Origin: Candidatus Ventrenecus stercoripullorum
Lineage (GTDB): Bacteria > Bacillota_I > Bacilli_A > RF39 > UBA660
DNA length: 63,859 bases
Assembly (NCBI GenBank): GCA_018712835.1
Contig: DVGF01000038.1
Coordinates: 1 to 63,859, forward strand
Direction: 5' to 3'
Under the pieces are notes generated by a model. That model did not search any database, had not been told where the DNA came from, and saw only the letters and a list, made by a program, of their open reading frames with translations. Shown here one piece after another: positions 3,398 to 46,719 of this stretch; position 1 is the first letter of the stretch; every line of letters starts with the position of its first letter. A program made the translations under genes and the position numbers.

Positions 3398-4567
3398 ATG
3401 GAAACTTTTTCTTATGCAATCAAAGTAGCGCTTTTGGCTTTTCCATTAGTTGCTTTATTATTTACAATTCCTTATATAATCCATCAGTACCATAAATATG
3501 GTTCAGTAAGTTCTTATCGTACGATTATCATCTATTCATTTCTTCTATATATGATAACCGCCTATTTCCTAGTCATTTTACCATTACCAAGTATGGAAAG
3601 CGTCTCAAAAATGACTACACCAAGCTATAATCTAATTCCATTTCAATTCATTAGCGAAATATTTTCAGACTCAGGTCTTATTATAAGTGATTTTGCAACC
3701 TATTTTCCAACGCTTAAAAATCCAGTAGTATATGAGTCTTTATTTAACGTTTTATTAACAGTTCCTTTTGGTATCTATTTACATTATTATTTTGAGTTTT
3801 CTTTCAAAAAGACGTTATTTGCAAGCTTTTGCCTAACTTTATTCTTTGAATTAACCCAACTAACAGGCCTATATTTTATATATCCAAGAAGTTACAGAGT
3901 CTTTGATGTAGATGATTTAATACTAAATACCTTAGGTGGAGTTATCGGCTATATCATTGCCTTTATTCCATTAAAGCTCTTACCAACCAGAAAAGAAATC
4001 GATGAAAATTCCCTAGAAAAAGGAGCAAGAGTAGGATTTTTAAAAAGAGTAGTATCCTTTACAATAGATTTCATGATTTATGGTGCATTCCTTTTCGTAG
4101 CCTTATACTTAACACACCATTACCTAGAAGATTGGGTTTCCGTTTTTAGTGTTATCTTTATCCTATGGAGTCTATTATACTATGTTTTCACACCATGCTT
4201 ATTAAAAGGAAAAACCTTAAGCATGAAATTCTTTCATCTAGAATTTACATCATCTAAAAAAGTAACCTGGTTAAGAATATTTGCCTATTATTTTTGGATG
4301 ATAGCATTTTACATCATCTTGCCATTCGGACTAACTTTTCTAGGATATTACCTTTATTATAAACAATATATTACCAGAGTATTTTTTGAATATTTCATCA
4401 TAGTAGTAGGAGCCCTAACCCTCATGATGTATCTAATTGCCTTATTAAAAAGAATATTTAGAATGCCTTTAATATTCGAAAAGATATCTCATATCGAAAT
4501 AATAAGTTCAATACAAGTACTGGTAGAAGAAAGTACAAAAGAAAATAGTGACAAAAATCTAAGCTAA
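3398..4567 (+). CDS. Membrane protein, VanZ-like domain fused to RDD domain
   Basis: VanZ-type motif DVDDLILNTLGGVIGY in the N-terminal half. RDD-type start (GFLKRVVSFTIDFMIYGAF) in the C-terminal half. Many TM helices; RBS AAAGGAGG. Confidence 0.7.
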   Translation: METFSYAIKVALLAFPLVALLFTIPYIIHQYHKYGSVSSYRTIIIYSFLLYMITAYFLVILPLPSMESVSKMTTPSYNLIPFQFISEIFSDSGLIISDFATYFPTLKNPVVYESLFNVLLTVPFGIYLHYYFEFSFKKTLFASFCLTLFFELTQLTGLYFIYPRSYRVFDVDDLILNTLGGVIGYIIAFIPLKLLPTRKEIDENSLEKGARVGFLKRVVSFTIDFMIYGAFLFVALYLTHHYLEDWVSVFSVIFILWSLLYYVFTPCLLKGKTLSMKFFHLEFTSSKKVTWLRIFAYYFWMIAFYIILPFGLTFLGYYLYYKQYITRVFFEYFIIVVGALTLMMYLIALLKRIFRMPLIFEKISHIEIISSIQVLVEESTKENSDKNLS

Positions 4568-11787: not shown

Positions 11788-11864
11788 GGGCGTTTAGCTC
11801 AGTTGGTTAGAGCATCTGCCTTACAAGCAGAGGGTCTGCGGTTCGAGTCCGTAAACGCCCACCA
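11788..11864 (+). tRNA. tRNA-Val(UAC)
   Basis: Cloverleaf GGGCGTT..AACGCCC, anticodon loop CTTACAA, T-loop TTCGAGT, encoded CCA. Confidence 0.95.
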
Positions 11865-11911
11865 TTATTTTTTTTGCCGAAATAGCGTAATTGGTAGCGC
11901 AACTGACTTGT

Positions 11912-12541
11912 GGGATAGAAGCCTAGTGCTTGTTGAACTATCTTGCACCTATAATTAGAAATGATTATAGTGGACGTCGCTAATTCGGGGAAAGCTAAGT
12001 AAACTGAAGGGGGATTATGGATTGCAAAAATTGTGGTAAACCATTAAAAAGAGGTAAAAGCTATTGTAGTAATGCTTGCCAACATCATTATGAATATAAA
12101 GAATATATTTATAAATGGAAAAATGGTTTAGCCAATGGCATGAAAGGAAAATATCAAGTATCCAATCACGTACGGCATTACTTATATGAAAAATATAATT
12201 ATCGCTGTGCATTATGTGGATGGAGCAAAATAAATCCTTTTAGCAATATTATTCCATTGGAAATTGAGCATATTGATGGCAATTATCTAAACAATTCAGA
12301 ATCCAATTTAACACTTTTATGTCCGAACTGTCATTCATTGGCTGCAACTTATAAAGGTGCAAATAGAGGAAATGGTAGAAAAGACAGAAAAAGATACAGT
12401 TTATATGCCAATCCCGAGCTAAAGGAAAATCCTTGAGTGTAGAGACTTTATACGACGAACCTAAGTCAACAATAAATTGATATGGTTAAGAGAAAGTCCA
12501 GACTACAAACACATTGTGGTAGTGAAAACTATAGTAGTACG
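11912..12541 (+). mobile_element. Group I intron (IC3-like) with embedded homing-endonuclease ORF
   Basis: It follows an exon U and ends in G. TAATTCGGGGAAAGCTAAG (11981-11999) resembles the P4/P5 core of the Azoarcus tRNA intron. CCAGACTACA (12498-12507) and AAACTATAGTAG (12526-12537) resemble the R and S/P7 elements. Confidence 0.8.
12017..12436 (+). CDS. HNH homing endonuclease (intron-encoded)
   Basis: N-terminal Cys cluster CKNCGKPL...CSNAC. HNH core LEIEHIDGNYLNNSESNLTLLCPNCHS. Strong RBS AAGGGGGA. Confidence 0.85.
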   Translation: MDCKNCGKPLKRGKSYCSNACQHHYEYKEYIYKWKNGLANGMKGKYQVSNHVRHYLYEKYNYRCALCGWSKINPFSNIIPLEIEHIDGNYLNNSESNLTLLCPNCHSLAATYKGANRGNGRKDRKRYSLYANPELKENP

Positions 12542-12589
12542 AATCAGTGGGTTGGGGGTTCGAGTCCCTCTTTCGGCACCATTTTTATT

Positions 12590-12673
12590 GGAGGGATAGC
12601 GAAGTGGTCAAACGCGGCAGACTGTAAATCTGTTCCTTCGGGTTCCATGGTTCAAATCCATGTCCCTCCACCA
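12590..12673 (+). tRNA. tRNA-Tyr(GUA)
   Basis: Acceptor GGAGGGA/TCCCTCC, loop CTGTAAA, long variable arm, CCA encoded. Confidence 0.95.
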
Positions 12674-12683
12674 TTATATATAT

Positions 12684-12759
12684 TGCCTCGTAGCCAAGTG
12701 GTAAGGCATCAGACTTTGACTCTGACATTCCGGTGGTTCGAACCCACCCGAGGCAGCCA
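12684..12759 (+). tRNA. tRNA-Gln(UUG)
   Basis: Acceptor TGCCTCG/CGAGGCA, loop CTTTGAC, CCA encoded. Confidence 0.95.
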
Positions 12760-12770
12760 TTCTTATTTTT

Positions 12771-12846
12771 GGTTCGCTAGCTCAGTAGGTAGAGCATTTG
12801 ACTTTTAATCAAAGGGTCTCGGGTTCGAATCCCGAGCGAGCCACCA
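12771..12846 (+). tRNA. tRNA-Lys(UUU)
   Basis: Acceptor GGTTCGC/GCGAGCC, loop CTTTTAA, T-loop TTCGAAT, CCA encoded. Confidence 0.95.
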
Positions 12847-12980: not shown

Positions 12981-13635
12981 ACATCAACGAAATCTAATAA
13001 ACTTGAAAGTTGCTCTTTGATAATTAGATAATGAACCGTATGAAAAACAAGGAGGCAACCTTGGACGGACTATATCTCGTGCTTATTACCTAATAGAGAG
13101 GTCTTTTAGGGGATTGGAGTAGATAATAATAGCAATATTATTGTCGGGACTTACAAAGTAAGAAAAGAGATATGGGTCGTTTAAAGTATTGGTTTATAAG
13201 GCACAGTCCTAATCGTGACAACCACAAACTTCTTTGGTAGAAAACAAAGAGATTCACTTTTCGACTTACTAGGGTGGCTTCCTAGAGAGAAGAAAAGAAT
13301 TAGCCAATAAGTCATTTTGCAGTTGATGTTTAGTGATAAACTATAAGATTAGAAACTGGTTAAAGTAGCACAAATCTGCAGGCCGAAAACGGTATAAGTG
13401 GTAAAGAAACGTTCAATTCGTTTAAGTTTCCTATGCGTGTGAAATTTGGGAGTGCAAGTCTCCTGTAGTGATCGTAGGTAGTTGAAGATTGAAGGTCGCT
13501 CCTTCATGAGGACAACTACTGGCTAGTGGCTGAAATAAAAAATAAACTGGTATTTTAAATGAATGAGAGAATCATCATTATCTAATTATCAAAAAGCAAT
13601 TATCAAAATACAACCGAAACATGGTTGTTTTTTCT
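12981..13635 (+). ncRNA. Large structured non-coding RNA (candidate ROOL-like ornate RNA; family not verified)
   Basis: The track shows no ORF of 60 aa or more on either strand between 12809 and 13671. The unit has its own promoter and terminator. An 18-bp perfect closing helix joins 13017-13034 and 13575-13592. Nested hairpins include 13122-13145 (10 bp, GCAA tetraloop), 13048-13063, 13270-13286, 13407-13423, 13448-13464 and 13478-13519. Confidence 0.65.
13610..13635 (+). terminator. Terminator of the large ncRNA
   Basis: Stem ACAACC/GGTTGT with loop gaaacat, followed by TTTTTT. Confidence 0.7.
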
Positions 13636-19524: not shown

Positions 19525-19601
19525 TGGTGCACCCAAAGGGAGTCGAACCCCTAACCTTTAGATCCGTAGTCTAACGCTCTATCCAATTGCGCTATGGGTG
19601 C
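19525..19601 (-). tRNA. tRNA-Arg(ACG)
   Basis: The reverse complement reads GCACCCA...TTAGA-CTACGGA-TCTAA...TGGGTGC-ACCA. Confidence 0.93.
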
Positions 19602-39365: not shown

Positions 39366-41126
39366 ATGGATATAAGAATTGATGAAACTATCGATAAAGC
39401 TCCATATTATAAAAAAATTTCAGATGATAAAGTTATAAATATTACTGGTGAAGGTGGAAGCGGAAAATCTACAATAGCAAGTAAATATAAAAAAGATGAT
39501 AATTATATAGTAGTAGATTATGATTTGATTATGTTAAATCCAGAAGAAGGAACAATAGAATATGAACTAAGACAAATGTTATTAAATAAATATGGTGAAG
39601 TATTATTTAAAGGTATTAATGAACTTGGACTGGATAAAGTAAAAGAAAATTTTACAACCATGTATACAGAAATCATTAATTATCTTTCAAAGAAAGAAAC
39701 AAACAAAACAATTGTTTTAGATGGCTCACAGTTACGATTTATTAATGATGTACAAGTGATTAAAGGAGAAGTCTTTGTTTTAAGACCATCTATACAAACT
39801 TGTATTTCTCAATCTGTTAAAAGATACATTCAAAAAAATCCACAAGCAACTATCGAACAAATTCAAGAATATACCCAAAAAAGAACAAATATACTATATC
39901 AATTAAATCCACTGATGAATGAATTATTGATTAAAGTATCTACGCTTCCAGAAGTGGAAAAAAAAAGAGCTGAATTATTTAATCAAAACTTAAATACTAT
40001 ATTTTCAGATGAAATAATTTATAATATTTTAAATAGAATAAGTGAAAATGAAGATTATAAAAATCCGATTACAAAAGAGCAATTTTTGCAATCAATAAAC
40101 CAAAAGGGATACAATATTATAACAACTCATAAAAAACTAGAAAATGAATTAGAACAAAAACTAAAAAGTTATGCTTACAATAAAAGTCAATTTCAACCTG
40201 ATTGTTTATATGAATATGCGGCATACATAATAACATTGATAAAGGAAGATTATAAAACATCTATAAAACCTGAAGCAATAGAACGATTAGAAGATTTGAT
40301 AACACAAAAGAAAATTGTACTTTGCAAAAAAGAACAAGGCACTGCTCATACAGATGGTAGTATCGAAATACCTTGGGCCAATCCGGCTGATCCGTTATTT
40401 ATAAGAAATGTTCGATATAGTTTAGATACCTTATTGCACGAGATATTTCATCAAACACATAGATACAGAGTTGGTGAGGATTTGAATATTATAGTAAACG
40501 AAAAAGAAGTAGTAGCAAAAAACTTTGGAGGCTATTTGTTTGAAGAAGGTCTTACTGATAAATGTACCGTTGATTTTGCAAGAAAGCATCAATTGTCTTG
40601 TAGTCCATTTTTTGAATATCATATCTATACTCAATTAGTAGCTGCTGTTGAAAAACAATTGGGCGTTACAAATGAATACTTGTTTGATAAGGATTATCGG
40701 CAAATATTTAATAAAATAGATCCAACAGGTCAAATGCTAGAACATTATCGTTTTGCGGAGCTATCGCGATATGCTTCGACAGCAAAGAAAAGAAAAGCCA
40801 AGGTAGAATTTGTGTTTAACGGAAAAAAATATGAAGCACAAGAATTTCCTTCATTAAAACAAGAAATAAAATCCCAGAACGCAATTATTAACAATGAGGA
40901 GCAAAAAAAATATTTTGACCAAAGAAGTGAAATTGAAATCCAAATTGCAGAACAAATAAGAATAAAAAATCAGGCAATAGCTCAACAAAAGCAGAAAAAG
41001 CCAAAAATGTTAGTGAAAACCAGCGCAACTTCTTCTCTTACAAGTAAGGGCTATATTAATGGAGTGATTTTATCTTTTATTGTAAGTGGTATGTTAGCAA
41101 TGATAATCTATTTTCTTTTTAAGTAA
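39366..41126 (+). CDS. Multidomain protein: P-loop NTPase/kinase-like N-terminus, zincin (HExxH..ExxxD) middle, coiled coil, C-terminal TM anchor
   Basis: INITGEGGSGKSTIASKY (Walker A). LLHEIFHQTH plus FEEGLTD about 30 aa later. C-terminal GVILSFIVSGMLAMIIYFLF. RBS AGGAGG. Confidence 0.7.
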   Translation: MDIRIDETIDKAPYYKKISDDKVINITGEGGSGKSTIASKYKKDDNYIVVDYDLIMLNPEEGTIEYELRQMLLNKYGEVLFKGINELGLDKVKENFTTMYTEIINYLSKKETNKTIVLDGSQLRFINDVQVIKGEVFVLRPSIQTCISQSVKRYIQKNPQATIEQIQEYTQKRTNILYQLNPLMNELLIKVSTLPEVEKKRAELFNQNLNTIFSDEIIYNILNRISENEDYKNPITKEQFLQSINQKGYNIITTHKKLENELEQKLKSYAYNKSQFQPDCLYEYAAYIITLIKEDYKTSIKPEAIERLEDLITQKKIVLCKKEQGTAHTDGSIEIPWANPADPLFIRNVRYSLDTLLHEIFHQTHRYRVGEDLNIIVNEKEVVAKNFGGYLFEEGLTDKCTVDFARKHQLSCSPFFEYHIYTQLVAAVEKQLGVTNEYLFDKDYRQIFNKIDPTGQMLEHYRFAELSRYASTAKKRKAKVEFVFNGKKYEAQEFPSLKQEIKSQNAIINNEEQKKYFDQRSEIEIQIAEQIRIKNQAIAQQKQKKPKMLVKTSATSSLTSKGYINGVILSFIVSGMLAMIIYFLFK

Positions 41127-41136
41127 GGAGGAACTA

Positions 41137-41736
41137 ATGTATAATATTGAAAATATAAAAGGTGAAATATTAGAAATCTTTGCAGAAAAACAAAATTACG
41201 ATGAAAAATATAATAGTTTAATGTTTGACTTTATTACTAAAGCTTATGAGCTTGTTGAGTTATCAGAAGACTTATATCAAGTAGAACATACAATAAAACT
41301 AAATCAAATATCATTAAAAGATTATATTTTAAATTCAAAGATATGTAATTATTTGAAAGACAATAATTTTAATAATTACTCGATTGAAGATTTAAAGGAA
41401 TATATGCAAAAATATGAAAATCAAAATCCTTCAGATATGATTTCTTATAAATTAGCTTTAGAATTGTACGAAAAATTAGAAGAAATAAAAGATATAGAAA
41501 AGTCAAAAATCGATTATGAAATAAGTCGAATGGGTAATTTATTAGACAATGTTAGTAAAATTGAAAGTGTTACCAAAGATAAATATCAAGCGCTATATAA
41601 TGATTTATTGCAACAAGTTAAAGTAAAATATTTAGATAATAATCTTATTGATGATAAGACAAATAATTATGTTATGAAAATATTAAACGACATATTTAAT
41701 TATTATTTATATGGAAATAAAGAAATTCCATTGTGA
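41137..41736 (+). CDS. Hypothetical acidic helical protein (199 aa), operon partner of 39366..41126
   Basis: RBS AAGGAGG, 10-nt gap after the upstream stop. No motif recognised. Confidence 0.65.
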   Translation: MYNIENIKGEILEIFAEKQNYDEKYNSLMFDFITKAYELVELSEDLYQVEHTIKLNQISLKDYILNSKICNYLKDNNFNNYSIEDLKEYMQKYENQNPSDMISYKLALELYEKLEEIKDIEKSKIDYEISRMGNLLDNVSKIESVTKDKYQALYNDLLQQVKVKYLDNNLIDDKTNNYVMKILNDIFNYYLYGNKEIPL

Positions 41737-41755
41737 TAGCCAATTGCTTTATAGA

Positions 41756-41854
41756 CACCATAAAAAAAATAGTTCGATTAAGCGGACTTTGAAATAGGGA
41801 ACTTGGAAAAAGTTCTTTTTTATATTACTATCTGTATGCAAGCAAGTATAATAA
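41756..41854. repeat. Repeat family R, copy C (99-bp perfect direct repeat of 39067..39165)
   Basis: Identical 99-mer, including the GAACTTggaaaAAGTTC + T-run hairpin and TATAAT. Confidence 0.9.
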
Positions 41855-42020
41855 AAAAAGAAAAATACCCAACAATTAGTATTGCCTGTATACATTATCT
41901 GTATAAACCAAAAGAGAATTTAAAAACTATTGAAATATTTATAACTGTAATAAAGTATCATTAATAGATAGATTATATTTAGAAAAAATAGTATAATGAA
42001 GCTAGAAACGAGGTGTAATA

Positions 42021-42566
42021 ATGGTTGAGTTAATGCAAAAATTAAATTTTCCTTTATTAGAAGTTCAACCAGTAATGGAATATTTTAGACAATTTGAAAA
42101 ATATGGAATAATAAGAGAAGAAGTAGAAAAAGATAATGGTGAAATAGATATATTAGTAAAAGATGAACTCATAAGAATAGTATACCTCATGATTAATGGA
42201 GGAAAATTCTGGAGTGTATATAGATACCATTCAAATGGCATAAAATATGAACAAATAGATATAATAGCTTGGGATAAAATAAAAGAGGGCGGATATAATA
42301 AAGTTATTAAATATGCAGGACACATAGAAGATGCTAATTATTCTTATATTACATGTTCTGGATTTTCTTATTTAAATGGAGAAATTACAAAAAGTTGGAA
42401 ACAGACGAGAGTAGTGCCAGTACAAGATATACAGAAAATCCAATATAGCAATGAGATGAATTTGACAGAACTAATTATAATGGCTGATAGCAAAAGTAAT
42501 AATATTGTAAAAAAAGAAGAACAAAAAGATATAGAAACATTAGTTTTAAAATTACAAAAGGTATAA
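42021..42566 (+). CDS. Hypothetical protein (181 aa)
   Basis: ORF with RBS GAGGTG; no motif recognised. Confidence 0.6.
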   Translation: MVELMQKLNFPLLEVQPVMEYFRQFEKYGIIREEVEKDNGEIDILVKDELIRIVYLMINGGKFWSVYRYHSNGIKYEQIDIIAWDKIKEGGYNKVIKYAGHIEDANYSYITCSGFSYLNGEITKSWKQTRVVPVQDIQKIQYSNEMNLTELIIMADSKSNNIVKKEEQKDIETLVLKLQKV

Positions 42567-42616
42567 TTTATTTTATATTAATATAAAATGCGATGTCTAT
42601 TGAAAGGAGTAAATAC

Positions 42617-42913
42617 ATGGAAGCAAATAATGAAGAATTAAATACATTAATCAATACTATTAATGATAATATGAGAGCATATGATAGAGATATTAAAGTA
42701 AGAATGAAAATATCAGATAATTTAGAAATAAAAAGATTAAAACAGGCAGCAACAGTACTTTTTTAAGAACTAAGTGAGCTCACACAAGGACCTTTTGCGC
42801 TAGATTTAGAAGAGGAAACTTCCACAATAACTACGAAAGAAGAGTCAACAGAGGAGTGCATAAATCCATCAATGCCTAGCCAAGTTATGAAAAGGACATT
42901 AGTAAAAAAGTAA
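42617..42913 (+). pseudogene. Small ORF interrupted by an in-frame TAA (49 + 48 codons)
   Basis: ATG after GAAAGGAG. TAA at 42764-42766, then the same frame stays open to the TAA at 42911-42913. Confidence 0.35.
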
Positions 42914-42975
42914 GTTTTTTGTTTGGCGTTCTTGATACAACACAATGAATTTAGACTTCATTTTTTCAATATTTT

Positions 42976-43004
42976 TTGACAAGTTCAATAAAATATACTA
43001 AAAT
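42976..43004 (+). promoter_or_regulatory. Promoter of the trpS leader
   Basis: TTGACA (42976-81), 17-nt spacer, TAAAAT (42999-43004). Confidence 0.55.
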
Positions 43005-43010
43005 TAGCTT

Positions 43011-43260
43011 ATATTTAAATCGTTGATTTGGAAAAGTACATATTAATGAAGCTTGTAGAAAGTAACTGGTTGATGAAAAGTTATAGTGGAGTAATATGGA
43101 ATGGCCCAATGAGAGTTTTTCTGAAATTATCAAAATAAAAGTATGGAAAATCGGAGTTTCTATCCGTTATCAATAGAACATATATGGTAGTATATGAAAT
43201 AAATCTATTTTTAGGTGGCACAAGATTCTTGTCCTATTCTTAGGAAAAGAGTCTTTTTTT
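43011..43260 (+). promoter_or_regulatory. T-box riboswitch leader, Trp specifier (UGG)
   Basis: Stem I-like GGAAAAGTAC / GTAGAAAGTAACTGGTTGA. TGG followed by A at 43097-43100. T-box-like ATTTTTAGGTGGCACAAG (43206-43223). Terminator AGATTCTTGTCC/GGAAAAGAGTCT plus TTTTTTT (43223-43260). Confidence 0.75.
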
Positions 43261-43284
43261 AATATCGTAAGAGGAGTGATTAAA

Positions 43285-43323
43285 ATGTTTATATTAGCTA
43301 AGCGATGGTGGTTTTCATTTTAA
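43285..43323 (+). CDS. Candidate 12-codon leader peptide MFILAKRWWFSF with tandem Trp codons
   Basis: Strong RBS AGAGGAG 8 nt upstream. TGG TGG at 43306-43311. Lies between the T-box terminator and the trpS RBS. Confidence 0.5.
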   Translation: MFILAKRWWFSF

Positions 43324-43357
43324 TAAAAAATAAAAAATAAGAAAGAGGGAATAAAAA

Positions 43358-44350
43358 ATGAAAACAATGATTACTGGTATTAGACCAACAGGTACGATAA
43401 CTTTAGCCAATTATATTGGAGGAATTAAAAAATTTATTGAACAACAAAAAGAATATAAATCTTTAATATTTATAGCTGATATTCACGGGCTTACCACATA
43501 TATTGAACCAAAGGAAATAAGAAACAATATACTTGATATAACTGCTCTTTATTTGGCTTGTGGTATTGATTTAGAGCATACAATAATATTTCAACAAGGT
43601 GACGTTTTAGAACACTGTAATTTAGGCTTTTTAATATCATTTCAATGCAGTGTAGGGGAATTATCTAGAATGACTCAGTACAAATCAAAAAAATTAGAAT
43701 TAGCAAAAACAGATAAAGATATGGGACTCTTTATTTATCCGACATTAATGGCTGCTGATATTTTATTATATGATGCTTCAATCGTACCAGTAGGGGAAGA
43801 TCAAAGAACTCATATAGAAAAAACAAGAGATTTAGGAGAAAGATTTAACAAAGTTTATGGCAAAACTTTTGAACTCCCTGAATATCAAATACCAAAGATT
43901 GGAGCCAAAATCATGAATTTACAAAATCCCAAAGTAAAAATGAGTAAATCGGCGCCCAAAAACGATAAGGGAACAATATTCATACTAGATGACGTTGAAA
44001 TAACCAAGAAAAAAATAATGTCTGCAGTTACTGATAATGAGGGTAAAATTTATTTTGATCCAGAAAGAAAGCCAGGAATTTCAAATCTCTTATCCATCAT
44101 GGCAGTCATTGACAACCTAAGTATTGAAGAAGTTTCTGATAAATATAAAGATTATACTTATAAGGACTTTAAAATAGAAGTGGCGGATAAAGTATCAAAG
44201 TTTATTTTAAATATTCAAGATAAGTTTTATAAGTATAGAAATGATGAAGATTATCTAAAAAAAGTTTTAAAAGAAGGCGCAAATAAAGCAAGAAAACTTG
44301 CAAGCAAAAAAATGGACGAAGTAAGAAAAACAATTGGATTAAAGCTTTGA
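43358..44350 (+). CDS. trpS: Tryptophan--tRNA ligase
   Basis: Collinear with Bacillus TrpRS: GIRPTGTITLANYIGG, MAADILLYDASIVPVGEDQRTHIE, KMSKS, KPGISNLL. Confidence 0.95.
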   Translation: MKTMITGIRPTGTITLANYIGGIKKFIEQQKEYKSLIFIADIHGLTTYIEPKEIRNNILDITALYLACGIDLEHTIIFQQGDVLEHCNLGFLISFQCSVGELSRMTQYKSKKLELAKTDKDMGLFIYPTLMAADILLYDASIVPVGEDQRTHIEKTRDLGERFNKVYGKTFELPEYQIPKIGAKIMNLQNPKVKMSKSAPKNDKGTIFILDDVEITKKKIMSAVTDNEGKIYFDPERKPGISNLLSIMAVIDNLSIEEVSDKYKDYTYKDFKIEVADKVSKFILNIQDKFYKYRNDEDYLKKVLKEGANKARKLASKKMDEVRKTIGLKL

Positions 44351-44382
44351 TTTATGATATGCTAAAGACATGGAGTGATTAT

Positions 44383-44904
44383 ATGACAATAACGAGATAT
44401 AGTAAAAGAAAAAATATAAATGAAAGAGAAAGTATTAATACCAAGCTAAAAGTTACAGATTATGTTTTTAATTATAATAATGAAGATTTTAACAATGCTA
44501 CATTAGAATACTATTTTGATAAAATAAAAAATGTAGAGATGAGTTATGAAGATGAAAAGAAAATATATAAAAAAGAAAGTTTTAGCCCAATTATAACATT
44601 TTTGATAAGTGCCGAAGACAAAAACAAAGAAAAATATTCATTTGAATTTTCTTTAAATTTAGATATAAAAGATTTAAATAAAATGAGCCAAACAAATCCA
44701 ACAAATATAATCGATTATGTGATAGAAGGAGAAATCTTTTTTCAAAATCCATATAAAAAAGGAGTAGAGTTCTGGGAAATCGAGAAAAAAGAAAATATTT
44801 ACCATTTTACTCCAAGCTATTGGGTTCAAAAGCTGTCAGAAAATAAATTTGCTTTTAAAATACAATACCAAACATTATTTATATGGTTTCATGTTGATAT
44901 TTGA
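44383..44904 (+). CDS. Hypothetical protein (173 aa) immediately downstream of trpS
   Basis: ATG after GGAGTGA. The frame is already open from 44347, where it overlaps the trpS stop. No motif recognised. Confidence 0.6.
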   Translation: MTITRYSKRKNINERESINTKLKVTDYVFNYNNEDFNNATLEYYFDKIKNVEMSYEDEKKIYKKESFSPIITFLISAEDKNKEKYSFEFSLNLDIKDLNKMSQTNPTNIIDYVIEGEIFFQNPYKKGVEFWEIEKKENIYHFTPSYWVQKLSENKFAFKIQYQTLFIWFHVDI

Positions 44905-44985
44905 ATAATAAAAGTTAGAAGGAAGAAAAATACAATTAAAATAAGAAATAATTAATATTTGAAAAAAGATAAGGAGTTTTCTAAA

Positions 44986-45135
44986 ATGAATGAAATAATA
45001 ATTACACCCCTTGGAACAATATCCCCTTACACAAAAGGAAATAGGAATTGTCCTGGTTTTTTAATCGAATACAATAACCAAAAAATATTATTAGATTGCG
45101 GTAATAGTGTATATGAATTAAGCAAAAATCAATGA
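44986..45135 (+). pseudogene. Truncated N-terminal fragment of an MBL-fold metallo-hydrolase
   Basis: MNEIIITPLGTISPY..NCPGFLIEYNNQKILLDCGN stops after 49 codons, before the HxHxDH motif. This is about 30 nt upstream of where repeat copy D and TA locus 2 begin. Confidence 0.5.
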
Positions 45136-45164
45136 AGTGACATAAAATAATTAGTTTTGTAACT

Positions 45165-45238
45165 TTAAGGAACTTGAAAAAAGCTCATTTTTATGCTACT
45201 ATTTGTATGAAAGCAAGAAACCTTGCGTATAATAAAAA
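45165..45238. repeat. Repeat family R, copy D (degenerate hairpin plus TATAAT)
   Basis: GGAACTTGAAAAAAGCTCATTTTTATGCTACTATTTGTATGAAAGCAAG..GCGTATAATAAAAAAAG aligns with copies A to C. Confidence 0.65.
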
Positions 45239-45239
45239 A

Positions 45240-45326
45240 AGAGGAACATTTGATTTCGCAAGTGAATGTCGCCTCTAAAATATTAGTGCTGACACTCAAT
45301 CAATGCTGAAAGAGTGTCATATTTTT
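45240..45326 (+). ncRNA. Candidate type I antitoxin sRNA, locus 2
   Basis: Starts after TATAAT (45228-33). Terminator hairpin GACACTC/GAGTGTC (45291-45318) plus T-run. Antisense to the 3' UTR and stop codon of toxin 2. Confidence 0.55.
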
Positions 45327-45409
45327 ATTGCTATTACCAATAAGGTAAGGAGTAATAAAATGATAGCAATAAGACGGAGGACTTTTATAATAAAAGTTCT
45401 TTTCTTCAT
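45317..45409 (-). CDS. Candidate type I toxin, 30-aa peptide MKKRTFIIKVLRLIAIILLLLTLLVIAIKI
   Basis: ATG 5 nt after AAAGGAGGG. TATAAT at 45477-45472 on the minus strand. Homologous to the 37194..37286 peptide. Confidence 0.7.
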   Translation of the reverse strand: MKKRTFIIKVLRLIAIILLLLTLLVIAIKI

Positions 45410-45588
45410 TGTATCCCTCCTTTCTTTCTCAAGATTGGAGGACGACACTCACATCAAATGTTCCGAGTAAAATTATATAATAATTGAATGATCAAAACAA
45501 GCAAATTGGTAAAGTTTTGATAAAAATTAGTACCAATGATATCATTTCAATACCAAAATATGTTAAGATATAGTCATAAGGGAAGGTT

Positions 45589-46113
45589 ATGATTATGGAT
45601 AGAACAGAAAAAGTAAGAAAATTACAAGAATTAAAGAAAGAAATCAAAAGAAAAGAATTGCAAATAATAGAGAAACAAAGTGAACTAAAAATATTAGAAG
45701 AAGAATATATGCAAGAAGAAACATCAGAGTTACCAATACTATTATTTTTAATTGATGAAACATTACCTATGCCAGATGAACCAAGAGATTTTATGTATGA
45801 ATATGTTTATTATTGTCCTGATACAGATGAAAAACTCTATATCGATCAGCATTCAGAGGAGGTATTTTTACCAAACACGATTGATTTACGAGATAGTTTT
45901 TCTACATTTAATGTTCCAAGAAAAAGTTTTCCTGCAACTGCATTAGATTATTCATCGGAAATTAATTTAGCAATAAGCATTTTAAAATCACAAATCGATG
46001 ATATATTTCGTCATGATACAATTGATTCTTGGGCTGATTTAGGAGCATCTTTAAAAGTAGCAGCTTTAGAAAAACAATTTTCTAGAGACTTAAAAGCAAC
46101 TAAACAGAATTGA
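45589..46113 (+). CDS. Hypothetical protein (174 aa, N-terminal coiled coil)
   Basis: ORF with RBS-like GGGAAGG; no family recognised. Confidence 0.6.
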   Translation: MIMDRTEKVRKLQELKKEIKRKELQIIEKQSELKILEEEYMQEETSELPILLFLIDETLPMPDEPRDFMYEYVYYCPDTDEKLYIDQHSEEVFLPNTIDLRDSFSTFNVPRKSFPATALDYSSEINLAISILKSQIDDIFRHDTIDSWADLGASLKVAALEKQFSRDLKATKQN

Positions 46114-46206
46114 TTAAGCTATTTACAAAGAATAATTTGTGAATATATGTAAACTAGCCAAAAACAAATCTCTTGACAAACCTAATCCAAAAAGAGTAAA
46201 CTTTTC

Positions 46207-46719
46207 ATGTACAAAATAGAAAGTAGGCTAGATATGGTACCAAATAAATTTGATGAATTATTTCAAAGCAAAGATACAGTATATATTTTTGATGTGGATG
46301 GTGTCCTAGCAAGAATAGAGTATGGAGAATATAACCATTATTACTATGATGACGAAGCATGGGGCAAAAACATTTATAAAATGAATTATTATGAAGATTA
46401 CCGAGCAATCAAAACGATGCAAAACTTTTTAAGTGATAAAGATATGAAAAGAGTTTACGTATGTACAAAAGTAATGAACGAAGAAGAATTTAGACAAAAG
46501 AGTGATTTCCTAGAAAAAAACTATCATATCCAAAAAGAACACATGTATTTAGTATATAAAAACGAAGACAAATTAGAAACCATAAAACAAATTCAAAAAG
46601 AGTATCCCAATCTAGAAGAAAAATACTTTGTCTTAATCGATGATAGTGTGGATGTACTAAACCATGTGATGGAAAATTCTAAGTTTAGTACAGTTCACAA
46701 CAGTAGTTTTCTCCCTTAA
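46207..46719 (+). CDS. HAD-superfamily hydrolase, 5'(3')-deoxyribonucleotidase-like
   Basis: VYIFDVDGVLA (DxDG nucleophile motif) and the late VLIDDS motif. Confidence 0.6.
   Translation: MYKIESRLDMVPNKFDELFQSKDTVYIFDVDGVLARIEYGEYNHYYYDDEAWGKNIYKMNYYEDYRAIKTMQNFLSDKDMKRVYVCTKVMNEEEFRQKSDFLEKNYHIQKEHMYLVYKNEDKLETIKQIQKEYPNLEEKYFVLIDDSVDVLNHVMENSKFSTVHNSSFLP

Follow-up and report, generated by a model that had tools for sequence, protein, structure and literature searches.

The subject of this analysis is the DNA upstream of trpS, the gene for tryptophanyl-tRNA synthetase (TrpRS), on contig DVGF01000038.1 of Candidatus Ventrenecus stercoripullorum, an uncultured gut member of the Bacilli; the whole stretch of 63,859 nucleotides is called the window below. 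The window is chromosomal, with a G+C content of 28-30%, and the genomes closest to it bear the labels "Bacilli bacterium", "Mycoplasma sp. CAG:776" and Candidatus Onthousia. Between a promoter and trpS lie a T-box, an intrinsic terminator and, past the terminator, a 12-codon open reading frame (ORF) with its own Shine-Dalgarno (SD) sequence and two adjacent Trp codons (Table 1). All the elements that an original prediction, made from the sequence alone, had listed here are present where it had placed them. It seems likely, from comparison of related leaders, that the short ORF serves as a second, ribosome-based sensor of tRNATrp, in which a ribosome pauses at UGG.

Table 1. Features of the trpS leader region; positions count from the first nucleotide of the window
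Feature	Position	Strand	Details
Promoter, sigma-70 type	42976..43004	+	TTGACA 42976-42981, spacer 17 nt, TAAAAT 42999-43004
T-box leader RNA (Stem I, Stem III, T-box sequence, antiterminator)	43014..43239	+	RF00230 match
Specifier codon UGG (Trp), Stem I specifier loop	43102..43104	+	Model alignment; GAA-UGG-C-CCAA
T-box sequence UAGGUGGCAC	43212..43221	+	Aligned to the model's GGGUGGUACC; conserved in the 18-leader alignment
Intrinsic terminator	43222..43260	+	Stem 43222-43255, loop 43237-43240, U7 43254-43260
SD of leader ORF, AGAGGAG	43270..43276	+	Ten bases past the U tract, 8 nt before ATG
Leader ORF, 12 codons plus stop, MFILAKRWWFSF	43285..43323	+	ATG 43285, TAA 43321-43323
Conserved core AAG CGA UGG (Lys-Arg-Trp)	43300..43308	+	Proposed pause site
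Second Trp codon	43309..43311	+	Not conserved in relatives (W/C/Y/L)
Leader 3' segment GUUUUCAUUUU	43311..43321	+	Perfect complement of the trpS start region; minimum free energy structures
trpS SD core GAGGG, within AAGAAAGAGGG	43345..43349	+	AAGAAAGA[AG]GG conserved in the 18-leader alignment
trpS initiation segment AAAAUGAAAAC	43355..43365	+	Includes AUG 43358-43360; partner of 43311-43321
trpS, tryptophanyl-tRNA synthetase, 330 aa	43358..44350	+	PF00579 at 1.5e-59; homologues

The promoter, which the original prediction had called good, matches the consensus at 11 of 12 positions (TTGACA-17-TAAAAT), is the top site in the 2.1 kb scanned (42500-44600) and ends about 10 nt 5' of the first position of the T-box model. 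The Rfam check proposed with that prediction returned a full-length match to RF00230 (43014-43239; model 1-219 of 219; 85.6 bits, E 3.6e-19, in E-value mode). An Rfam scan at the gathering threshold reported no T-box in the window and none in the Oscillospiraceae loci described below, both of which E-value mode detected; the window's T-box is overlooked by the default scan because its 85.6 bits fall short of the gathering score of 93, as do the 59-87 bits of its relatives' matches. The sub-threshold score reflects a compact, A/U-rich variant of the T-box, one that aligns with 17 orthologous leaders.

Across those 18 aligned leaders (window plus 17 relatives) the GAAUGG at the specifier is invariant, and the codon it contains, UGG for Trp, agrees with the downstream gene. 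Here the original prediction has to be corrected. It had read the specifier as a UGG followed by A; the neighboring UGG-A, at 43097-43100, is found in the window only and is not conserved among the 17 relatives, and both the model alignment and those relatives place the specifier at 43102-43104, where the next base is C in the window and A in most relatives (A, G or C overall, a purine being usual). What it had described as a T-box-like sequence does align with the model, at 43212-43221, and is kept in the relatives; the NCCA end of uncharged tRNATrp would find its pairing partner in the UGGC within it (43216-43219). The strong terminator that it had placed at 43223-43260 has its stem at 43222-43255 and folds at -15.7 kcal/mol (z = -5.07), a stability equalled by none of 200 shuffled sequences, and its 5' arm doubles as part of the model's antiterminator helix. 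Sequence and family membership thus establish the T-box as the first tier of control. A T-box upstream of trpS is in itself ordinary. The 63.9-kb window holds no tRNATrp gene.

The less ordinary element is the ORF that follows. The original prediction had noticed, between the terminator and the trpS ribosome-binding site (RBS), a mini-ORF with a strong SD and the codons TGG TGG; it lies at 43285-43323, with the Trp codons at 43306-43311, and its stop falls 34 nt before the trpS AUG and 21 nt before the trpS SD core. On both strands of the 63.9-kb window this is the sole combination of a GGAG with an ATG 5-11 nt downstream that opens a Trp-containing ORF of 8-15 codons, and only 32 of 20000 dinucleotide shuffles (0.16%) of the 97-nt spacer 43261-43357 created such an ORF. 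Its occurrence exceeds chance expectation. UGA is a stop codon in the window, where TGA ends 8 of 34 long ORFs.

Conservation of this ORF carries most of the argument. One genome per species was scanned, which yielded 19 close trpS loci (75-85% protein identity) in metagenome-assembled genomes of RF39-like gut Bacilli. A T-box precedes trpS in 17 of these, and all 17 have a leader ORF of 10-13 codons in the same place; the two in which trpS has no T-box, L002 and L004, have no such ORF either, trpS in L004 standing directly behind an upstream gene. Lack of conservation in related leaders, which the original prediction had named as grounds for its own refutation, is thus not what the comparison shows: 17 of 17 T-box leaders have the ORF with its SD and start codon. 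Two further lineages at 73-74% identity, L090 and L091, have SD, ATG and leader ORF as well (peptide MGIKRWWWFYLK). In a third, L092, the trpS start overlaps the 3' end of a PALP (trpB-like) gene, and there is no T-box or leader of its own; for L002, L004 and L092 the regulation of trpS may sit further upstream.

The manner in which these leaders vary is that expected of a translated frame with one fixed segment. GGAG stands 8-9 nt ahead of the ATG in 18 of 18 leaders, and the peptides (MYLLVKRWWFII, MVLLVKRWWFKY, MFLLVKRWLL, MEKY[LV]KRWCKLY, MKKNVKRWCKLY, MEKYLKRWYKLY, MIKYAKRWCKYY and MKLLSKRWYFLII among the relatives) share little beyond Lys-Arg-Trp. Among the 15 distinct nucleotide versions, substitutions in codons 2-5 and 9-12 fall on first, second and third positions alike, and codons 6-8 read Lys-Arg-Trp in every one, with synonymous third-position changes only (AAA 12, AAG 3; CGA 13, CGG 2). 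Codon 9, the second Trp codon of the window, is TGG in 3, TGT in 6, TGC in 3 and TAT, TAC and TTG in one each, that is, W 3, C 9, Y 2 and L 1; one lineage has WWW. The conserved unit, as judged from these alignments, is therefore Lys-Arg(CGA)-Trp with an invariant first Trp, and the tandem Trp pair, which the original prediction had taken for the hallmark, is not. Its central proposal, that a T-box followed by a Trp-codon leader amounts to a second reading of tRNATrp, holds up in this comparison; the details it had offered of the Trp pair and the specifier do not stand. At one relative, L013:2998-3000, the trpS start reads ACG rather than ATG in an otherwise identical context, which could be an assembly error or mean that translation starts at an in-frame ATG at codon 4.

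The same arrangement recurs outside this group. A pattern scan of metagenomes, which required K-R-W and 15 nt between ATG and AAR and so left out the RF39 leaders (12 nt), gave mostly chance matches in G+C-rich coding DNA, together with a genuine family in Oscillospiraceae, in which Trp T-boxes occur in genomes with a G+C content near 56%. Five of these T-boxes are complete, at 59-87 bits; a sixth, L029, is truncated by the contig end and scores 36.6 bits. The specifier is AAUGGG in the T-box alignments displayed, and behind each T-box come a terminator, an SD and a short leader of the form M-x(4-7)-[KN]-R-W. The leaders, given here up to their stop codons, are MRKQPGKRW, MKKLPGKRW, MKKLPGKRWWA, MMFLMVKRW and MKTERQKRW. 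The downstream gene encodes an ATP-binding cassette (ABC) substrate-binding lipoprotein of PF04392, the family of TrpX, a T-box-regulated tryptophan uptake protein (PMC9382623); in one case, L029 (minus strand, about 2400-2834; T-box 2637-2834), it is a PALP, trpB2-like gene, preceded by MKTERQKRW. By its sequence this single example adds a third gene family to those with the T-box and R-W leader.

Because the pattern had itself demanded K-R-W, a further sample was drawn by protein alone, from Oscillospiraceae/Faecousia homologues that share 70-75% identity with the binding protein. A T-box and a leader are present in all six of those with readable upstream DNA, the leaders, again up to the stop, being MKKNPGKRW, MRNPGKRW, MKKLPGKRW, MKKLPGKRWQN, MKIPLNRWRP and MTKKLPGKRWQT; Lys is replaced by Asn once among the Oscillospiraceae leaders (L088). 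Found as it is in unrelated gut bacteria ahead of other tryptophan genes, the pairing of a T-box with a Trp leader looks like a largely unrecognized second check on tryptophan supply, made by the ribosome.

Several observations on these loci may be recorded alongside. The ABC operons, which comprise binding protein, permease and ATPase and usually lie beside lexA (L049, L060, L059, L077, L080, L082, L084, L086, L088, L089), have the Trp T-box and ...PGKRW leader some 100 nt ahead of the ABC_sub_bind gene. Past the leader the spacer contains 33% C and 11% G, with conserved CCUGACCAG and CCAUCCACAA. At L059:6650-6900 and L087:1-165 a G+C-rich palindromic insert (...GGGGGCGGCGTCCTCGACGCCCCG... 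plus an inverted copy) separates leader and ABC gene; it looks like a small repeat element.

The design is seen with another amino acid in the lineage of the window. In L007, tyrS is the next gene after trpS, and it too is preceded by a T-box (95.2 bits, specifier UAC) with a terminator, after which come AAGGAGG and a leader ORF of 32-33 codons, MDSDYYYYYFDDCNLINYTNYLGG..., with five consecutive Tyr codons (L007:4211-4537). This ORF covers both the SD and the start codon of tyrS and stops 20 nt into the gene. L007, L093:1170-1520 and L095:1170-1520 all have it, with a single synonymous change among the three genomes, and in L093 it is annotated as a 32-aa gene; blastn did not find the tyrS T-box and leader in the other loci collected for comparison. 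Downstream of tyrS, at L095:2745-3083, metS has a T-box with specifier AUG and no leader ORF, the metS SD coming straight after the terminator; it serves as a negative control from within the lineage. Such leaders are therefore no by-product of every T-box, and where they are present after T-boxes they carry, as their sequences read, cognate codons. The tyrS leader region also contains an 11-nt exact repeat, ACUAUUAUUAC, at L007:4353-4363 (3' strand of Stem III) and 4455-4465 (within the Tyr run); the 5' strand of Stem III could pair with either copy.

Codon choice within the core suggests that more than the amino acid sequence is under selection. Of the 451 Arg codons counted in the window, 51 (11%) are CGA and 53% are AGA; AGA, a single synonymous step from CGA, never occupies the Arg position of the 15 distinct RF39-group leaders. 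In the Oscillospiraceae leaders Arg is CGA throughout, and CGA supplies 1 of 136 Arg codons in the neighboring genes (CGG 83, CGC 26); the Pro, Gly and Lys codons next to it vary synonymously. With Arg nearly always on a rare codon and AGA absent, selection acts not on the amino acid alone but also on the codon or the tRNA that reads it. We hypothesize that the rare CGA, through an inosine-adenine wobble pair in the ribosomal P site, would slow A-site decoding of the UGG that follows. A gene for the CGA-reading tRNAArg(ACG) is located at 19525-19601 of the window.

The proteins controlled by these leaders bear on the direction of any effect. TrpRS of the window contains no Trp residue, and the same is true of 117 of 120 TrpRS homologues and 118 of 120 homologues of the ABC binding protein. 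A TrpRS without Trp can be made during a shortage of Trp, so a pause on the leader should raise, not lower, expression.

Of the systems already described, the window's arrangement is closest to rtpLP-rtpA, the anti-TRAP operon of Bacillus subtilis, in which a Trp T-box attenuator is followed, on read-through transcripts, by a Trp-codon leader ORF of about 10 codons, and tRNATrp charging is read twice, by RNA and then by the ribosome. In the accounts of Chen and Yanofsky from 2003 and 2004, the rtpLP stop codon reportedly lies on the rtpA SD, which the terminating ribosome blocks. The window differs in geometry, in target gene and in conserved core: the leader stop precedes the trpS AUG by 34 nt (24-45 nt in relatives), the target is trpS rather than a TRAP antagonist, and the core is K-R(CGA)-W with one obligatory Trp, where rtpLP has three Trp codons. 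The original prediction had doubted that rtpLP-type coupling could operate here, and the geometry bears it out: with the stop codon (43321-43323) 21 nt ahead of the SD core (43345-43349), SD occlusion of that type is ruled out for trpS. The L007 tyrS leader, which runs across the tyrS SD, resembles rtpLP in form. In the anti-TRAP operon, transcription and translation both respond to uncharged tRNATrp (PMC4027176, PMC10327191). Literature searches, which took in a 2020 T-box review and the S. suis trpX T-box study but did not cover the main reviews, so that a prior description is possible, returned no leader peptide after a T-box other than rtpLP.

Three other systems invite comparison. E. coli trpL and the Streptomyces trpS/trpRS1 leader are, like the window's, short Trp-codon ORFs upstream of a Trp gene. 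The trpL peptide ends ...KGWWRTS, and its length and the position of Trp near its end are similar to those of the window leader. In trpL-type attenuation, though, the position of the ribosome selects between antiterminator and terminator, and the only terminator in the window, that of the T-box, precedes the ORF; the interval 43261-43357 has no terminator-like site, and folds of 43255-43380 have no G+C-rich hairpin with a U run. Classical leader-peptide attenuation is excluded because no terminator follows or overlaps the leader ORF. The Streptomyces attenuator, which has a trpS gene as its target, is likewise terminator-based and has no T-box (PMC1262725). In translational attenuation of the ermC type, a ribosome paused on a short leader opens a helix that masks a downstream start, and a stalled ribosome also stabilizes the mRNA. 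The window may be alike in this, although here the trigger would be a lack of Trp-tRNA rather than an antibiotic, and the helix in the window is short, A/U-rich and unevenly conserved. In E. coli tnaC-tnaA, stalling on the leader peptide masks a Rho loading site, TnaC sensing free Trp through a 24-residue peptide. The tnaC leader is again short and Trp-related, and the C-rich, G-poor Oscillospiraceae spacer resembles a Rho utilization site, which a paused ribosome could, by analogy, mask. The tnaC type of Rho masking cannot apply in the window, since its spacer has 1 C in 37 nt.

We suggest, with a little more confidence than doubt, that the two tiers together form a sensor of tRNATrp charging that controls trpS and has RBS unmasking as its output. 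In the first tier, RNA polymerase would pass the terminator at 43222-43260 only with uncharged tRNATrp bound at the UGG specifier and the UGGC bulge. Read-through transcripts would then bear the strongly initiated 12-codon leader with its core of Lys-Arg(CGA)-Trp. When Trp-tRNATrp is scarce, a ribosome would pause once UGG 43306-43308 has reached its A site, while tRNAArg(ICG) occupies its P site on the rare CGA codon; it would cover about 43291-43320, including the 43311-43321 segment, keep that segment away from the trpS start at 43355-43365 and, in the manner of ermC, hold the RBS open for as long as the pause lasts, and it may protect the mRNA in addition. With ample Trp-tRNA the ribosome would reach UAA and depart, and the pairing of 43311-43321 with 43355-43365 would re-form. 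We propose the pause because the frame is conserved, its Trp codon is obligatory, tyrS has a Tyr analogue, B. subtilis offers a precedent and the regulated proteins are free of Trp.

For the output step the evidence is structural. The 11-bp duplex between 43311-43321 and 43355-43365 has a computed energy of -16.1 kcal/mol, where shuffled leaders give -7.9 +/- 2.2 (z = -3.8, p = 0.003), and the modelled unpaired probability of the trpS initiation region rises from 0.65 to 0.98 with a ribosome paused at UGG. Leader and start region pair better than shuffles (negative z) in 10 of 11 lineages, significantly so in five (p 0.003-0.03), and own leader/start pairs are stronger than cross pairs (permutation p = 0.03). 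The complements are specific to the lineage: UUUUUGAUAAUUU/AAAUUAUGAAAAA in L019, UUUUAUUUAA/UUAAAUAAAA in L090 and UAAUCAUUG/CAAUGAUUA in the L006 group. These statistics are soft, the RF39 sequences being A/U-rich and interrelated, and RBS unmasking is our best but weak guess, from modelling, at the output in the window. A uniform unmasking mechanism is not supported, modelled accessibility shifting in the window and L029 only.

A number of points weigh against the two-tier sensor and its proposed output. We infer from sequence that the leader is translated, that ribosomes pause on it and that trpS is affected. The pattern that found the Oscillospiraceae family demanded K-R-W, and only the protein-based sampling is unbiased. 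As to codon choice, the Arg codon is CGG in two RF39 relatives, and the hypothesis of a special role for CGA draws on yeast work and general knowledge. The structural evidence is the most exposed: (i) the pairing is absent or insignificant in the window's closest relatives, L001, L003 and L005 (z of -0.35, +0.67 and -1.7); (ii) the trpS initiation region of most relatives is predicted to be open with or without a ribosome on the leader; (iii) the leader/start pairing is weak once the loop of about 35 nt is included; (iv) RNAalifold found no consensus structure in the Oscillospiraceae spacers; and (v) sequences of 28% GC yield many chance A/U pairings.

In the main rival to RBS unmasking, the pause at UGG is identical and the output differs: the paused ribosome, near the 5' part of the read-through transcript, would shield it from 5'-to-3' or endonucleolytic decay (RNase J/Y), much as ribosomes stalled by erythromycin stabilize ermC mRNA, and the trpS mRNA would live longer when Trp-tRNA is scarce, with no need of a specific downstream structure. 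The initiation region predicted to be open in most relatives, ribosome or not, counts in favor of such shielding, as does a spacer between leader and gene that ranges from 24 to 63 nt and is very variable in length and sequence. In many Oscillospiraceae leaders, moreover, the stop abuts the Trp codon, so that pausing and terminating ribosomes differ in dwell time and not in position, and the leader SD is very strong and stands 10-15 nt past the terminator in every case. We nevertheless consider protection from decay the less probable output, with a modest chance of being right, since the 5' end is structured already by the T-box and the tRNA bound to it, and the significant leader/start complementarity of the window, L016, L019, L049 and L090 would be left unexplained.

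Less probable still is that K-R-W acts as an arrest motif specific for the nascent peptide or the tRNA, through tRNAArg(ICG) in the P site and perhaps modulated by a ligand such as free Trp, as in TnaC or PepNL. Lys and Arg are kept besides Trp, though a pure hungry-codon sensor needs neither, and CGA is selected at the codon level. The Oscillospiraceae leaders also end nearly always in UGA, often right behind Trp, and work on PepNL indicates that Trp-tRNA can act at the UGA stop of a short arrest peptide (PMC11890864), which we count in favor of arrest. The peptide, however, would be just 6-9 residues long at the putative arrest point, and known ligand-independent arrest peptides are longer; Lys gives way to Asn in L088, anywhere from 0 to 5 codons separate Trp from the stop, and tyrS, in the same lineage, has a leader that simply repeats the cognate codon.

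The logic might also be reversed, with the leader feeding trpS by reinitiation across the spacer and its Trp codon acting as a throttle when Trp-tRNA is wholly lacking. An A-rich, nearly C-free spacer that is predicted to be unstructured would suit such a scheme, and the tyrS leader, ending inside tyrS, has a geometry compatible with termination-reinitiation. We think this improbable for trpS: the gene owns a strong, conserved SD, the throttle would oppose the T-box signal, stalling raises expression in the B. subtilis precedent (PMC4027176), and Trp-free regulated proteins make sense only if they are to be made during a shortage of Trp-tRNA.

Finally, there may be an RNA-level reason for the invariance of CGA, which reads as a nucleotide-level signal, and in 7 of 8 Oscillospiraceae leaders a CCAUC that lies 28-53 nt further downstream offers GAUGG a possible pairing partner; we give very little credence, all the same, to an untranslated AARCGAUGG, such as one arm of a helix, with an incidental frame, when SD, 8-9-nt spacing, ATG and in-frame stop are conserved among leaders whose other codons differ wholly, core variation is confined to third positions in phase with the frame, and chance would provide such an ORF in 0.16% of cases.

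If the two-tier reading is correct, a transcript that has escaped the terminator faces a second test, of the real supply of Trp-tRNA, and a translated element is being missed by T-box databases and annotation pipelines. T-boxes are usually taken to be self-sufficient, and the documented backup in rtpLP-rtpA is regarded as specific to TRAP. In the loci described here the two-step logic appears in uncultured gut lineages that lack model organisms, where it precedes the gene of an aminoacyl-tRNA synthetase, those of an ABC transporter, a trpB-like gene and, with Tyr codons, tyrS. We offer more tentatively, as a possibility somewhat short of an even chance, the generalization that Trp T-boxes in several Firmicutes lineages routinely precede an unrecognized class of leaders with CGA-UGG (Arg-Trp, mostly with Lys ahead of it) as their functional core. 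The rare CGA, read by inosine through its wobble with A in the P site, would make the decoding of one Trp codon so sensitive that this codon sufficed as a checkpoint for charged tRNATrp after the checkpoint for uncharged tRNATrp. With the Tyr-run leader of tyrS added, a T-box plus a cognate-codon leader would be a general two-signal design, not one peculiar to the anti-TRAP operon. The absence of Trp from TrpRS and the binding protein fits a circuit meant to operate under Trp shortage, and the rare CGA held before UGG provides a testable case of codon-pair-tuned pausing in bacteria.

Some features of the wider window remain to be described. Its tRNA genes, ten in total, include a cluster for Val, Tyr, Gln and Lys (11788-12846), directly followed by a ROOL RNA at 13012-13594 (RF03087, 180.7 bits). 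A phage origin, prompted by the tRNAs and the ROOL RNA, was considered and rejected: the only phage similarity is a 129-nt stretch inside trpS that matches two records of Listeria phages, and the surrounding DNA is chromosomal. The regions flanking trpS (39366-42566 and 44347-46719) contain ORFs without a Pfam match, apart from a weak AAA_22 in a 586-aa protein at 39366-41126, and there is a 4-nt overlap between the trpS stop and the ORF at 44347.

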